Assembly: GCA_963662625.1 (NCBI GenBank) | Contig: OY759726.1 | Span: 1,184,001-1,248,000, forward strand | DNA length: 64,000 bases | Direction: 5' to 3' | Source: Nitrosopumilus sp. | Lineage (GTDB): Archaea; Thermoproteota; Nitrososphaeria; Nitrososphaerales; Nitrosopumilaceae | Shown: positions 10,038-14,601 of the stretch, in pieces | Layout: every line of letters starts with the position of its first letter | Numbering within the stretch: the first letter of the stretch is position 1 | Position numbers and translations under genes: made by a program | Notes under the pieces: generated by a model | What the model was told of the DNA's origin: nothing | The model's input: only the letters and a program-made list of their open reading frames with translations | Database searches by the model: none

Positions 10038-10199
10038 ATGCAACCCATGCAGAAACTGTGCGAGGGGGACGCCTCCGGGAGGGGGCAGCACTGCTTCTGC
10101 ATGGAGGTCGACCCCAGGAGCGGGGTGCGGAAGTGCTGCAGGTGCAACAGGTGGAACATCCAGGGGCGGGACTGGACAGACGACTCTGACTTCCGGTGA
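10038..10199 (+). CDS. Small Cys/His-rich putative metal-binding protein (53 aa), not in ORF track
   Basis: MQPMQKLCEGDASGRGQHCFCMEVDPRSGVRKCCRCNRWNIQGRDWTDDSDFR*; GC3-rich codons; AT-rich promoter-like stretch at 10012-10029. Confidence 0.65.
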   Translation: MQPMQKLCEGDASGRGQHCFCMEVDPRSGVRKCCRCNRWNIQGRDWTDDSDFR

Positions 10200-10263
10200 T
10201 CCCGCGCAATACCGCGGTTCCTACCGCGATATCGCGAAAACACGCGCGATCGCGCGAGCCATG

Positions 10264-10293
10264 CCTAATAGTCTGTTGCCTAATAGTCTGTTG
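10264..10293. repeat. 15-bp tandem duplication CCTAATAGTCTGTTG x2
   Basis: Exact copies at 10264-10278 and 10279-10293, directly at the IS110 left junction. Confidence 0.95.
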
Positions 10294-10329
10294 AACACAT
10301 GATAACCACCCAGGCGTAGTTGCCCCGAT

Positions 10330-10443
10330 GGATCGACCCCTGGTAGCGCGTGGGCCTGGCGCCCTTTCTGTTGAATGGGGCAATCCGAGCTGCTGTGTCA
10401 CTGGGCTTCGCGCCCTGATAGGTGTGTGCAGCTTCCGATCCGT
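10330..10443 (+). ncRNA. Candidate IS110 bridge RNA (target-binding and donor-binding loops)
   Basis: Two parallel modules GGGC-N5-GCCC-T-N-[7-nt guide]: TCTGTTG (10367-10373) matches the target flank and ATAGGTG (10418-10424) matches the right end plus core; outer stems CCCC/GGGG and AGCTGC/GCAGCT; structure deduced by eye. Confidence 0.7.
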
Positions 10444-10473
10444 CAGACATCCGAAAGGAGGTGATAGGAAAGG

Positions 10474-11565
10474 ATGAGAAAGACAAGCATAGGGATAGAC
10501 ATAGGGAAGAGAAAGTGCGACGCGTGCGTGGTGGACGGGAACGGGAAGGTTCTCGAGAGGGGGCAGTACCCCAACACCCGGGACGGCGCGGCGAAGTTCG
10601 CAGGGGTGATGGCGCGCAGGTACCTGGGCGGCGGCCCCTGCAGGGCCGCCTGCGAGACGACTGGCAACATGTGGAACAAGACGTTTGACGCCTTCGAGGC
10701 GGCCGGGATCGACATCAAACTGGCCAACACGTACAAGATGGCCCTGATAGCCAGGACCGCCAAGAAGACCGACAGGATTGACGCAGAGAAGATAGCGCAG
10801 GTGCTGAGGATGGACATGATACCGGAGTGCTACGTCCCCCCGGGCCACACCAGGGGGATACGCGCGATGGTCAGGCAGAGGGTGAGGCTGGTCCAGGACA
10901 GGACGCGCGTGATAAACCGCGTCCACAGCCTCCTGGACCGCCACGACATCCAAATGGACGCCTCCACCATGCACTCCGAAAAGGCCTTGGGGCAGCTGGA
11001 ATCTGCGGAGCTGGGCTCTGGGCACGACGGGTTGGTCCTGGGCCAGTGCGCCCGGCAGGTGAGGCACCTGACGGAGGAGATCTCCGTGACGGAGGGGCTC
11101 CTCGAGATGGAGGCCGCCCACAACGGTGACGCGAGGCTGCTGGCCAGCATGACCGGCGTCGGCACGTTCACCGCGGTGCTGATGGCCTCCGAGATCGGGG
11201 ACGTCTCCAGGTTCAGGGGGCCAAGGCAGATGGTGTCGTGGGCCGGGCTGTGCCCGGTGGTCTACCAGTCGGGGAACCAGCTGTACACGGGGAGGATCAA
11301 GAAGATCGACTCCAGCAGCCTGGTCAACTGGGCCATGTGCGAGGCCGCGAACACCGCCGTGCGGCACGACGCCAGGATGGAAGCCGTGTATGCGTCCGCG
11401 CGCCGGAGGCACGCGGACAAGCATGGGCCGGCAATCATAGTGGTGGCCCACAAGATGGTCACCATAATGTGGCACATGCTGACCACCAAGACACCCTACG
11501 AGTCCCGCAACGAGAGGCTGTACCGGCGCAAGCTGGCCAGGATGGAGAAGGCGCGCCGGGGGTGA
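10474..11565 (+). CDS. IS110-family recombinase/transposase (DEDD RuvC-like + Tnp20 domain)
   Basis: IGIDIGK, ACETTG, KKTDRIDA, MTGVG and GLCPVVYQSG (catalytic Ser) motifs; GGAGGTGA RBS upstream. Confidence 0.95.
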   Translation: MRKTSIGIDIGKRKCDACVVDGNGKVLERGQYPNTRDGAAKFAGVMARRYLGGGPCRAACETTGNMWNKTFDAFEAAGIDIKLANTYKMALIARTAKKTDRIDAEKIAQVLRMDMIPECYVPPGHTRGIRAMVRQRVRLVQDRTRVINRVHSLLDRHDIQMDASTMHSEKALGQLESAELGSGHDGLVLGQCARQVRHLTEEISVTEGLLEMEAAHNGDARLLASMTGVGTFTAVLMASEIGDVSRFRGPRQMVSWAGLCPVVYQSGNQLYTGRIKKIDSSSLVNWAMCEAANTAVRHDARMEAVYASARRRHADKHGPAIIVVAHKMVTIMWHMLTTKTPYESRNERLYRRKLARMEKARRG

Positions 11566-11609
11566 CCCCCCGCGCTGCCCGCATCCCGGATCGTCTTGCC
11601 AGCGCTAGC

Positions 11610-11616
11610 TATAAAT
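11610..11616 (+). promoter_or_regulatory. Outward-facing TATA box in the IS110 right end
   Basis: TATAAAT in an otherwise GC-rich end; predicted TSS about 11638. Confidence 0.5.
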
Positions 11617-11768
11617 CTCATGCCATGCAACCCAGTCACGGATCGGAAAAACCGCGGGATGCATTGCGGCAACTACGCCTGAGTGGTTAACATAGGTGCA
11701 CAACTGCCAGAAATTGCCGGGTCTAAACAGTTGAACCCCCGGCCCAACCATGTCAAACCGAAAAGGCC

Positions 11769-12911
11769 TTGGATCACGGCCGCGCACCGTCCCCGTTGGC
11801 TGCGACCGACAACGAGAAATACGTCAGGCGCGGGAGGGGCCTGGCTGTGTCGTATGACCCCGGCTGGGAGGACGACCTGAGGGAGGCCAACGCCGGCAAG
11901 GAGGGCGCCCCGTTCAGGTACGCCGGGGCGCTGGTCATGGCCGCCGCCGCGGTGAGGACCTCGCTCGGGGTCCAGTACAGGCAGCTGTCCGGGCTCCTCG
12001 CGGGGATGCTGGGGGGGCACGGCGCGCCGCACTACTCGGTGCTGGCCAGGAGGATGGCGCGCCTCGACGTGGACATCGGCGGGGGAGTCGTCCGCGTCTC
12101 CGGCGGCGGCCAGCCCATGACCCTGCTGGCCGACGCCACGGGCCTGAAGCAGTGCAACCGGGGCGAGTGGATACGGAAGAAGTGGAAGGTGAAGCGCGGG
12201 TTCGTCAAGCTGCACCTGCTGGCCGACGCCGACACGAAGAAGATACTCGCGGCGGTGGTGACCGACGACAGGACGGGCGACTCCCCCATGCTGAAGGAGC
12301 TCCTGGGAACCGTGGCGGGGCCGCGTGGCGGGAAGCCGGACGGGAAGCCGGCGGGGAAGCAGGGCGGGAAGCAGGACAGGCGCATGGCGCTGATCCGCGG
12401 GAAGGCAGCCGCGGCGGGGGATCCCCTGCCGCGCGTGGGCTCGCCCCCGCCCAACCTCCTCGCGAGCGGCGTGGCGCCGCTCGCGCTGCAGTGCGGCCAG
12501 CCGCCCGGCTCCCACGGGGCGCGCCTGATCGCGGACGGGGCGTACGCGTCGCGGGACAACATGCGGAGGTGCCGCGACATGGGCGTGGGGCCTATCATCC
12601 CGGTCAAGGTGGCGTCCACCGCCAGGGGCAAGGGCGCCGGCGGCGCGTGGGGCGAGGCGGTGCGGGACCAGCTGGGGGGCGGCCCGGAGGCGCGCGTCGA
12701 CAGGATGGGCACGAGGGAGAGGGAGGAGAACGTCCGGTACTGGAAGGCCAGGAAGGGGTACGGCAGGAGGTGGCTGATCGAGATAATCATATCGGCGTTC
12801 AAGAGGATGTTCGGGGACCACGTGCACTCGCGCAGGTGGGAGAACATCGTGCAGGAGGTAAGGCTCAGGGTGGCCCAGTACAACCGGTGGGCGGGGGAGG
12901 CGGGGGCGTAG
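11769..12911 (+). CDS. IS5-family DDE transposase (IS903-like group)
   Basis: LLADATGLK, KRGFVKLHLLAD, LIADGAY and YGRRWLIEIIISAFKRMFG motifs. Confidence 0.9.
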   Translation: MDHGRAPSPLAATDNEKYVRRGRGLAVSYDPGWEDDLREANAGKEGAPFRYAGALVMAAAAVRTSLGVQYRQLSGLLAGMLGGHGAPHYSVLARRMARLDVDIGGGVVRVSGGGQPMTLLADATGLKQCNRGEWIRKKWKVKRGFVKLHLLADADTKKILAAVVTDDRTGDSPMLKELLGTVAGPRGGKPDGKPAGKQGGKQDRRMALIRGKAAAAGDPLPRVGSPPPNLLASGVAPLALQCGQPPGSHGARLIADGAYASRDNMRRCRDMGVGPIIPVKVASTARGKGAGGAWGEAVRDQLGGGPEARVDRMGTREREENVRYWKARKGYGRRWLIEIIISAFKRMFGDHVHSRRWENIVQEVRLRVAQYNRWAGEAGA

Positions 12912-13019
12912 GGACTCCAAGCGGCACGGCCTGGCCACGGCCCGGGGATCGTGCCGAGTTGTGCAACAGACTAATGCCTAAGCATGGTTTTTATCGGGGT
13001 AACTGAGAATTTTGGTCAC

Positions 13020-13595
13020 TTGAGCGCTCAGGAATACAGGCACATAGTCAGGATAGTGGGAAACGACATCCCGGGGGCCAAAAAGGTCGTGGTCGGCCTG
13101 ACCCAGATCAAGGGGATCGGGCACAACTTTGCCACCGCGGTGCTGGACGTGCTGAAAATTGACGTCAATTCCAACGTCGGCTTTCTGACGGAGCCGCAGG
13201 TACATGCCATCGAAAAGCTGATCACCGATCCAAAGTCTGCCAACTTTCCCGCATGGTTCCTGAACCGGAGAAAGGACATCGATACGGGAAACGACATGCA
13301 CCTGCTCACGTCTGACATCCCGTTCACGCTGAGAAACGACATCGAGCGTGAGAGGGTCACCAACAGCTGGAGGGGGTACCGGCACCTGTACGGCCTCAAG
13401 GTCAGGGGGCAGAGGACCCGGACCACCGGAAGAAAGGGCGGCGCGGTAGGCGTCGCAAAGGGCGGCAAGGCCGCACCAGTAAAACCATCAAAGCCTGGCG
13501 CGCTGGCGTCGCCTACGGGGGAGGCCGTGGCCGAACAGGGGACTCCGGCTAAGGCAGAGGGCGAGAAGGCGGCCCCGGAGGAGACTACGTCGTAG
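13020..13595 (+). CDS. rps13: 30S ribosomal protein uS13
   Basis: IKGIGH...NRRKD...[22 protein letters not shown]; TTG start at 13020 downstream of TTTTTAT. Confidence 0.97.
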
Positions 13596-13605
13596 GTGGC
13601 CGTGG

Positions 13606-14601
13606 ATGGGAGATCCAAAATACCCGCGGCGCGTGTGGAAGAAACCGAAGAGGCCCCTGAACTATGAACTAAAGATGGACGAGCTGAAGACGCTCGGCAC
13701 GTTTGGGCTCAGGACAAAGAGGGAGCTGTGGAAGGCGCACACGGAGCTGTCCCGCGTAAGGCACCAGGCACGGTCGCTGCTTGCGCTGAGGCAGGAGATA
13801 AGGCAGGAGAAAGAGCCGATCCTGATGAGGTCGCTCGCAAGAATCGGGCTGGTCAGCGGAGACGCGACCCTGGACGACGTGTTGAACCTGCAGGTAAACG
13901 ACCTGCTTTCCCGCAGGTTGCAGACGATAGTGTCGAGGAAGCTGGGGTTTCAAACCCCGTACCAGGCAAGGCAGGCTGTCGTGCACGGCCACATAATGAT
14001 CGGGGACAGGAAGGTAACCATCCCGTCATACACCGTGACACTGGAAGAGGAAGACGCGATTCGTTTTTCCCCGGAATCCACGATTGCGGAGATGTTGGAA
14101 AAGCACAAAAAGTCAACTGAGGAACCTGCAGAGGCCGCGCCAGAGACGCCGGCAGAGGCCGCGCCAGAGACGCCGGCAGAGGCCGCGCCAGAGACGCCGG
14201 CAGAGGCCGCGCCAGAGACGCCGGCAGAGGCCGCGCCAGAGACGCCGGCAGAGGCCGCGCCAGAGACGCCGGCAGAGGCCGCGCCAGAGACGCCGGCAGA
14301 GGCCGCGCCAGAGACGCCGGCAGAGGCCGCGCCAGAGACGCCGGCAGAGGCCGCGCCAGAGACGCCGGCAGAGGCCGCGCCAGAGACGCCGGCAGAGGCC
14401 GCGCCAGAGACGCCGGCAGAGGCCGCGCCAGAGACGCCGGCAGAGGCCGCGCCAGAGACGCCGGCAGAGGCCGCGCCAGAGACGCCGGCAGAGGCCGCGC
14501 CAGAGACGCCGGCAGAGGCCGCGCCAGAGACGCCGGCAGAGGCCGCGCCAGAGACGCCGGCAGAGGAGAGTAAACAGGACGACAAGCCTTCACCGAACTA
14601 A
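13606..14601 (+). CDS. rps4: 30S ribosomal protein uS4 with long acidic repeat tail
   Basis: MGDPKYPRRVW...RRLQT...QARQAVVHGHI; C-terminal (PAEAAPET)n. Confidence 0.97.
   Translation: MGDPKYPRRVWKKPKRPLNYELKMDELKTLGTFGLRTKRELWKAHTELSRVRHQARSLLALRQEIRQEKEPILMRSLARIGLVSGDATLDDVLNLQVNDLLSRRLQTIVSRKLGFQTPYQARQAVVHGHIMIGDRKVTIPSYTVTLEEEDAIRFSPESTIAEMLEKHKKSTEEPAEAAPETPAEAAPETPAEAAPETPAEAAPETPAEAAPETPAEAAPETPAEAAPETPAEAAPETPAEAAPETPAEAAPETPAEAAPETPAEAAPETPAEAAPETPAEAAPETPAEAAPETPAEAAPETPAEAAPETPAEAAPETPAEESKQDDKPSPN
14128..14565 (+). repeat. Perfect 24-bp tandem repeat x18 (GCAGAGGCCGCGCCAGAGACGCCG)
   Basis: Identical units with no spacers, in frame within rps4. Confidence 0.97.

Follow-up and report, generated by a model that had tools for sequence, protein, structure and literature searches.

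Among bacterial insertion sequences (IS) of the IS110 family, IS4321 and IS5075 are said to target the inverted repeats of Tn21; they are plasmid-borne, and their target is a 38-bp repeat of the Tn3 family. In Pseudomonas putida H, the IS110-family element IS1383 inserts into IS1384 and reportedly uses the inverted repeats of this other IS as its target, as Mueller, Lauf and Herrmann are said to have described in 2001. Here we describe an archaeal arrangement of this kind in Nitrosopumilus sp., within a 64,000-nucleotide stretch of DNA (the window, spanning 1184001-1248000 in a closed genome of 1.86 Mb and 63.4% G+C; locus coordinates below are window positions), in which an IS110-family element splits the 17-bp left terminal inverted repeat of an IS5-family element at a TG core. 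From the junctions of this element, its relatives and its predicted RNA, we propose with considerable confidence that the window IS110 copy, referred to as W, arrived by bridge-RNA-guided, site-specific insertion into the terminal inverted repeat of a resident IS5.

In the bridge RNA logic set out in PMC11208160, left guides pair with the bottom strand and right guides with the top strand of a site, with the core included. For the seekRNAs of IS1111-type elements, Siddiquee et al. place the top-strand match 5′ of the bottom-strand match (PMC11187229), and the rule given there for IS1111 elements is a long non-coding region and an RNA downstream of the transposase gene, with exceptions such as ISMtsp17 (PMC11187229). 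Archaeal IS110 recombinases have been counted at 662 (10.1101/2024.06.21.599552). In the literature searched, we found no account of an archaeal IS110 in the end repeat of an IS or of thaumarchaeal bridge RNAs, although the supplementary tables of PMC11208160 and PMC11187229 may list some.

At the window locus, W occupies positions 10294-11698 on the plus strand, begins with AACACATG and ends with CATAGG followed by TG, boundaries that were taken from a BLAST map and eight full copies; its length of 1405 bp includes the right-hand TG core (11697-11698). Directly to its left, the left terminal inverted repeat of the IS5 contributes its outer 10 bp (TAGTCTGTTG, 10284-10293, plus strand), which comprise the left target half and the TG core at 10292-10293. 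To its right, the IS5 remainder (11699-12973, plus strand) begins with CACAACTGCC and comprises CACAACT as the inner 7 bp of the left repeat, followed by the transposase gene and the right terminal repeat (AGTTGTGCAACAGACTA, 12957-12973). Deleting 10294-11698 in silico yields TAGTCTGTTGCACAACT, the exact reverse complement of 12957-12973, and the crossover falls on the TG that separates repeat positions 8 and 11 (TAGTCTGT-TG-CACAACT). A preliminary description of this DNA had placed IS110 within the IS5 terminal repeat, and its coordinates and account proved correct, because the junctions at TG are precise and removal of the element rebuilds the exact inverse of the right end.

W carries a (sub)terminal inverted repeat with 43-nt arms that are 81% complementary (left arm 10292-10334, right arm 11658-11700) and that covary among relatives. 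Its gene for a DEDD recombinase of 363 aa (10474-11565, plus strand) matches Pfam PF01548 and PF02371 (E = 6e-28 and 6.5e-22, both above gathering scores) and NCBIfam NF033542, 'IS110 family RNA-guided transposase' (242.9 bits, cutoff 140). The DDE transposase gene of the IS5 (11769-12911, plus strand) matches Pfam DDE_Tnp_1 and NCBIfam NF033579 (173.5 bits, cutoff 140), which together with the 17-bp repeats and 8-bp duplications places the element in the IS5 family; from the 8-bp duplication, it presumably belongs to the ISH1 subgroup.

The further claim that an 8-bp duplication flanks the whole composite held as well, since an identical ATGCCTAA stands on both sides (left copy 10261-10268, right copy 12974-12981). 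A perfect 15-bp tandem duplication beside IS110 had, however, been overlooked. It consists of TGCCTAATAGTCTGT twice, then TG (10262-10276 and 10277-10291, 100% identity; span 10262-10293), and because of it the target-site duplication, matching at 8 of 8 bases, belongs to and flanks the distal copy of the IS5 tip. On our reading of the sequence, this distal tip is the first TAGTCTGTTG (10269-10278) and is followed by a second segment, CCTAATAGTCTGTTG (10279-10293); the IS5 tip that adjoins IS110 is preceded by TTGCCTAA. The duplicated unit is made up of 5-7 flank bases and the outer 10 bp of the IS5 repeat. TG dinucleotides, identical to the IS110 core, lie at its borders, and its end coincides exactly with the IS110 crossover. 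Possible origins are slippage on 2-bp microhomology or a by-product of IS110 recombination. None of the other IS110 junctions of the genome that were compared contains the duplication, and contigs from three samples (runs X1, X2 and X3) match the duplicated junction without differences.

A BLAST search of the genome returned eight full-length IS110 and nine near-full IS5 copies in addition to fragments of both. W is the least-changed IS110 copy in the genome, and the window IS5 is 98-99.5% identical to IS5 copies that lack IS110. The preliminary description had anticipated that IS110 junctions would be enriched in IS5-type repeats, and the genome map shows strong enrichment of this kind: 10 of the 16 IS110 copies or fragments bearing a left end adjoin an IS5-type tip, reading TAGTCTGTTG, TAGTTTGTTG, TAATCTGTTG or cAGTCTGT (the last at the fragment p1533450), and these include one right repeat and three ends of a miniature inverted-repeat transposable element (MITE). 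Four IS110 copies have IS5 interior on their right side, three of them in a left repeat (W, c720829 and p1774206, the last a 97%-identical fragment that has lost positions 326-1405) and one in a right repeat (c728474, in the IS5 at 731131..729877), and in all four the left end of IS110 adjoins the outer 10 bp of the repeat. The three full copies that bear the TATA box described below (W, c720829 and c728474) and p1774206 all lie in IS5 repeats. The copies c476458, c1063451 and p701290 occupy the equivalent position in the end repeats of the MITE, in both of its orientations, with MITE interior on the right. This MITE of ~83 bp, with the IS5-like ends TAG(C/T)TTGTTGC(A/G)CAAC, is IS5-derived; its copies include genome positions 1153758-1153840, 1543602-1543681, 1064855-1064931, 477861-477935 and 700434-700509, among others. 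The remaining six left-end pieces (p1230215 and five diverged fragments) have other left flanks, and their guide region, where present, differs.

Empty sites are found in the same genome. Five IS5 copies have no IS110, and four of these contain the uninterrupted 17-mer at both ends, the form of the intact left end that had been predicted; the fifth, i8474, has the 17-mer at its right end and two changes in its left end. Perfect 8-bp duplications flank all five of these copies and, counted over evaluable copies or composites, 7 of 8, the eighth sharing 7 bases. The decamer TAGTCTGTTG occurs 22 times in the 1.86-Mb genome, as against 3.5 expected, an excess that is not due to chance. Every occurrence is an IS5 end, an IS110 junction or the duplicated copy: CACAAC follows in 14 cases, AACAAC in 1 (a mutated IS5 end) and the IS110 left end in 6, and the remaining one is the duplicated copy itself. 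By contrast, the 7-mer TCTGTTG has 65 genomic sites and is occupied only where it lies inside IS5-type ends, and therefore a short match alone is insufficient for occupancy.

Two side observations concern the copies themselves. The 100%-identical copies c720829 and c728474 stand in inverted orientation, each beside an IS5, and bracket a 7.6-kb segment, such that the whole region (719425-729878) may be a composite or inversion structure. The left flanks of IS5 copies (for example at genome 46148, 8484, 1674225, 728464 and 720839) place the insertions ~15-20 bp downstream of TATA-like runs (TTTAAAA, TATATA or TTAATAAT), which suggests an IS5 preference for promoter-like DNA.

To compare the ends of W more widely, relatives were collected from Nitrosopumilaceae genomes (49-67% protein identity), with more loci from genomes of this genus and family. 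In their left ends, variable stretches interrupt a scaffold that is conserved, and from covariation in alignment A2 we predict a bridge RNA core at 10327-10444 (plus strand), consisting of a closing stem, a target-binding loop and a donor-binding loop. In the computed fold, which is based on an 18-sequence alignment, five helices form the closing stem and two internal loops, each with an outer stem and a GGGC..GCCC hairpin. The model has 27 pairs, 10 of them with compensatory changes, and 94.8% of cells are paired; no shuffle out of 500 was as good, and slid partners were 30-49% paired. No Rfam family matched in a scan of 10150-13050 at E up to 1.

The variable stretches contain the predicted guides. 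On the 3′ side of the target-binding loop, the left target guide (UUUCUGUUG, 10365-10373, plus strand) includes UCUGUUG, the sense of TCTGT+TG in the IS5 repeat. At the same nine positions, the left guides of relatives match their own, differing flanks: GTCGTG in L001, GTAACTG in L005, TGGTTAG in L006, TCGCAACAG in L011, TTCATTTG in L020, and TTTGTG and CGACCTG in others. Over 12 element types, exceptions included, 51 of 84 non-core positions are Watson-Crick-equivalent matches, compared with a shuffled mean of 23.4, and none of 20000 permutations reached 51. The right target guide (GGUAGCGCG, 10342-10350, plus strand), on the 5′ side of the same loop, is complementary to TG and the right flank; counting Watson-Crick and G-U pairs, it pairs at 8/9 positions with MITE ends and with the flanks of c18717 and c1508668, and over 11 element types only 2 of 20000 shuffles reached the observed value. 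In the donor-binding loop, the left donor guide AUAGGUG (10418-10424, plus strand) is the sense of the IS110 right end ATAGG+TG and covaries with it (AUAGAUG with ATAGATG in L001, AUAGGAG with ATAGGAG in L006). On its 5′ side, this loop has a stretch (UGUGUCACU, 10394-10402, plus strand) that we tentatively read as the right donor guide, with UGUGU complementary to the left-end ACACA; the reading suits W, L001 and L032 and is poor for L005, L007 and L011.

Taken at the level of sequence comparison, these data support a bridge RNA encoded in the IS110 left end, with guides that covary with the flanks, and this predicted RNA guidance explains the target specificity of the element. The right end contains a TATA-box-like TATAAAT (11610-11616, plus strand), ~85 bp before the element end and facing outward; the conserved form AGCTATAAA is kept in 14 of 15 aligned relatives and in 3 of the 8 full copies of this genome. 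As a separate observation, a related IS110 in genome G008 (L020 and L026) lies inside a short palindromic repeat element with the ends CTG(T/C)GTCCTACA(A/G)GCA, and its right guide matches the flank TGGTTAT.

Several results weigh against guided insertion as the whole account. Single-sequence folds were no better than shuffles for the left end of IS110 (z = -0.11) or for its right end, so the structure had to come from comparison. The right guide pairs with the IS5 repeat itself at only 7/9 positions, and a random TG site pairs at 7 or more with a probability of 0.085. Two same-genus elements (L021 and L033) have a left guide-flank match of only 5/9, and c1699637 and p1533450 carry other left guides (CGCCAUG and GAGCUUG) yet lie beside AGTCTGT; these two therefore require an extra assumption, either trans mobilisation by a W-type RNA or a later change of guide. 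In Logan contigs, neither an empty-site joint nor a clean TG circle junction was seen, although these are contigs rather than raw reads and give no proof of absence. One contig from run X1 does join the right end at 11699 back to 10292 (depth 21.6 versus ~35 in unique flanks; shorter side 67 letters), but this single joint is 3 letters longer than a plain TG junction and is absent from the assembled genome; it may reflect either a circle or a tandem outside the assembly. A further joint, from 11541 to 10372, occurs in run X3 with a shorter side of 39 letters.

Also on the adverse side are three full copies, c18717, c1699637 and c1508668, whose left flank is TAGTCTGTTG or TAATCTGTTG and whose right flank is unrelated DNA, with nothing convincing as a second IS5 end within 6 kb to the right. 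Later rearrangement could have produced them, or they could be genuine insertions, either at IS5-type ends that are solitary or diverged or at half-matching pseudo-sites, and we consider the case for genuine insertion evenly balanced. Their right flanks pair with a W-type right guide at 8/9 positions (c18717 and c1508668) or 7/9 (c1699637, counted by hand), a fit of 8 or more having a null probability of 0.013; a TATA-like run lies ~15-20 bp upstream in their left flanks, as at IS5 insertion sites; and off-target insertion at half-matching sites is described in 10.64898/2026.08.31.748434. On the other hand, a search for a partner end or a repeat family matching these flanks found none, and c1699637 has AG instead of TG as its right core, a state also seen in L007 of another genome.

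We also considered a target for the odd guides of c1699637 and p1230215. The best repeated candidate, GGCCA-TG-CCGTACA, has 25 sites at no more than 3 mismatches compared with ~14 expected, which is not significant, and is unoccupied. Such a site, which resembles the target that the variant guides of c1699637, p1230215 and f16034 would predict, lies inside IS-X, a 1351-bp IS4/ISH3-like element with the ends CCCAGTAGATCGAAATGTAC (genome 339825-341175 and at least 6 near-identical copies). A junction of IS-X and IS110 at 1610467 was rejected as evidence of targeting, because it looks like a microhomology join.

The recurrence of IS110 beside IS5 might instead be attributed to the IS5 transposase having moved IS5::IS110 as one composite unit, or to regional duplication, rather than to repeated targeting. 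Composite movement would also produce the separate 8-bp duplication that is seen around each composite, and the complete identity of c720829 and c728474, inverted and 7.6 kb apart, would be readily understood. However, c728474 lies in a right repeat and c476458, c1063451 and p701290 lie in MITE ends of both orientations, which amounts to at least four independent junction types, and guide complementarity predicts exactly the site that is observed. Furthermore, c728474 has 44 A>G or T>C changes against 10 in its host IS5, and therefore the two did not age together. We thus regard movement as a composite as very improbable, and give still less credence to the idea that TAGTCTGTTG is an extended left end of IS110 itself, which would recombine with IS5 ends by short homology without RNA guidance. 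The presence of the 10-mer to the left of copies with a non-IS5 right flank (c18717 and c1699637) and of copies with other guides is what such an extended end would predict. Yet IS5 copies free of IS110 possess the 10-mer as their own tip beside target-site duplications, relatives elsewhere begin at the same AACACATG or at AATxxATG with flanks that differ and match their own guides, and the IS110 inverted repeat stops at TG.

Under RNA-guided insertion, which we prefer, the RNA produced from the IS110 left end would read the site through its target loop, one guide being the sense of TCTGT+TG and the other complementary to TG and the right half, and its donor loop would match the right end of IS110 itself. 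The same guide pair would find left, right and MITE ends, because the IS5 repeat is inverted at both ends and common to the derived MITE. Transcription of the RNA and the recombinase gene probably starts from the TATA-like box of the right end only when the right and left ends are joined, as in a circular intermediate or a tandem. In an integrated IS110, transcription from the box would enter the IS5, in the sense direction of its transposase gene where the insertion is in a left repeat and in the antisense direction where it is in a right repeat.

Insertion should disable the IS5 end in cis, because the outer 10 bp of the repeat have been moved 1.4 kb from the inner 7 bp and from the remainder of that end. 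The IS5 transposase reading frame is open at 380 aa, compared with 376-388 aa in other copies, and therefore action in trans would still be possible. Were IS110 to excise precisely at the TG cores, a full IS5 repeat would be restored, preceded by the extra 15 bp. Defective IS110 copies evidently still moved, since c728474 is identical to the degraded c720829 and yet sits in an IS5 that is little changed. If a W-type enzyme and RNA mobilised copies in trans through shared donor ends, the odd guides and the movement of such defective copies would both be explained.

The changes that mark these degraded copies are one-directional. The window element (10294-12973) was compared with genome 719425-720829, 728474-729878, 476458-477862, 17306-18717, 718141-719424 and others, and A>G or T>C accounts for 44 of 44 differences from W in c720829 and in c728474, 89 of 90 in c476458 and 199 of 210 in c18717; in parallel, the G+C content of IS110 copies rises from 0.633 to 0.775, against 0.634 for the genome. 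Protein identity to five outgroup transposases is 48-63% for W, 46-57% for c720829, 41-51% for c476458 and about 29-44% for the most changed copies, and W retains the outgroup state of the TATA box and the RNA scaffold. The direction is therefore from A:T to G:C, with W the least changed, and the reverse direction (C>T in W) was rejected on the outgroup identities.

The changes also recur at particular sites. Copies share changed sites far above chance, which indicates preferred sites, and this applies even to c1699637, a separate lineage by its ~60 ordinary private substitutions, for which 39 of 44 sites are common where ~12 are expected. The changes are also coupled in pairs. The motif TNNA is changed at both ends at 11 of 47 sites in c720829 (at one end only in 2), 18 of 47 in c476458 and 14 of 32 in an IS5 copy, whereas the corresponding counts for ANNT are 3 of 54, 5 of 54 and 3 of 34. 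The recombinase stop codon of c720829 was lost through such a paired change, from TGA to CGG. Other IS families have the same bias, and repeats that are not IS are free of it, with A:T>G:C, G:C>A:T and other changes at 146/151/477 and 29/67/193. The transposase genes of W have third-position G+C contents (GC3) of 0.91 and 0.95 versus ~0.74 for long host reading frames, which fits long exposure of active lineages to the same pressure.

General GC pressure is an unlikely cause, given that the differences are almost exclusively of one type, that edited copies exceed the genome in G+C (0.775 versus 0.634), and that repeats outside IS have ordinary spectra. A sequencing or methylation artefact is also unlikely, as the variants lie at distinct loci and recur in contigs of other runs. 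These observations lead us to suggest, tentatively and a little short of even confidence, a directed, dyad-symmetric hypermutation of IS110 and IS5 copies from 5′-TNNA-3′ to 5′-CNNG-3′ (A to G on each strand, at a spacing of three bases) that hits preferred sites and spares repeats other than IS. It would be a silencing or editing of mobile DNA in a prokaryote, reminiscent of repeat-induced point mutation (RIP), in which W would be the one unedited IS110 master and the edited copies would still be moved in trans by the enzyme and RNA of W. At the level of titles and listings, we found no RIP-like A-to-G process described in prokaryotes. If the suggestion is right, such a one-directional, coupled A>G signature restricted to mobile elements would point towards an as yet unknown activity of ammonia-oxidising archaea, either in DNA editing or in defence.

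Beyond the composite, window positions 13606-14601 contain a ribosomal protein S4-like open reading frame that has a long C-terminal run of PETPAEAA repeats.

The locus offers a natural example, in Archaea, of a transposon living on the ends of other transposons, with the predicted guide RNA, the target, and occupied and empty sites in one genome. It would extend the bridge RNA and seekRNA picture to a thaumarchaeal clade, and the clade forms a compact natural set of reprogrammed elements, with at least 10 different left guides and matching flanks. Should insertion disable and excision restore the IS5 end, IS110 would switch IS5 activity reversibly within a symbiont-like, IS-crowded genome.

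In terms of known families, W behaves as an IS110-family element: insertion is specific for site and orientation, a TG core stands on both sides, and no further target is duplicated. Computationally, the element also has the expected RNA, with target and donor loops complementary to both strands, the right donor guide being tentative. Its recombinase matches the ISCro4 and IS621 transposases in the Protein Data Bank (PDB), with the motifs IGID, cET/EAT, KTDriDA/KTDtvDA and Y(q/e)SG aligned. We take the aligned D, E, D and D and the C-terminal S of the SG motif to be the catalytic residues, an assignment that PMC11187229 supports in part.

Within the family, the IS1111 group is characterised by subterminal inverted repeats of at least 7-17 bp, and the arms here are 43 nt long; in addition, the right target guide (10342-10350) lies 5′ of the left target guide (10365-10373), as in that group. 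Departing from the IS1111 pattern, the guides precede the gene, lying in a left end of 180 bp, and the right end measures 133 bp. By the rules given in PMC11208160 and PMC11187229, the inverted repeats and the guide order separate W from the IS110 group sensu stricto. As read from sequence features, the layout is therefore mixed, combining IS1111-like subterminal repeats and guide order with an IS110-like RNA upstream of the gene.

IS621 (PMC11208160; PDB 8wt6) shares with W a DEDD recombinase and a two-loop RNA whose loops pair with both strands around a 2-nt core, and likewise makes no target duplication beyond the core; it differs in its CT core, its subterminal repeats of 2-3 bp and its REP targets, and the protein match is weak (E = 5e-11). 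The seekRNA elements ISEc11, ISPa11 and ISKpn4 of the IS1111 group (PMC11187229) share the guide order and the long subterminal inverted repeats, whereas their RNA is in the usual position downstream of the gene; the likeness of W to the IS1111 group is one of sequence features. The motif GL-P----S/TG of IS1111-family elements appears here as GLCPVVYQSG, and the upstream non-coding region is shared with ISMtsp17, which is, like ISHvo10, an exception in its group (PMC11187229). ISEc21 (PMC11187229) is also an IS110-family element that has an upstream RNA and targets another IS family, but its target is a conserved stretch within IS3-family transposase genes rather than a terminal repeat, and its guide order is of the IS110 type.

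The likeness is closest in the kind of target. Like the archaeal pair described here, IS1383 and IS1384 combine an element and a specific target that is the inverted repeats of another insertion sequence; they are bacterial, and the title of the report names no RNA guide, whereas the present pair comes from an archaeon and its predicted guide pair also matches a target-derived MITE. IS4321 and IS5075 are IS1111-type elements that share with W the subterminal inverted repeats and the use of one fixed position and orientation in the end repeat of another transposon, but by the IS1111 rule their non-coding region is downstream of the transposase gene, unlike the upstream RNA predicted here. The comparison with IS4321 and IS5075 drawn in the preliminary description thus holds, although the novelty it attached to an archaeal case was overrated: with bacterial precedents for IS-end targeting in print (IS1383/IS1384 and IS4321/IS5075), this kind of targeting is already known, and it is the layout of the archaeal element that is somewhat unusual.

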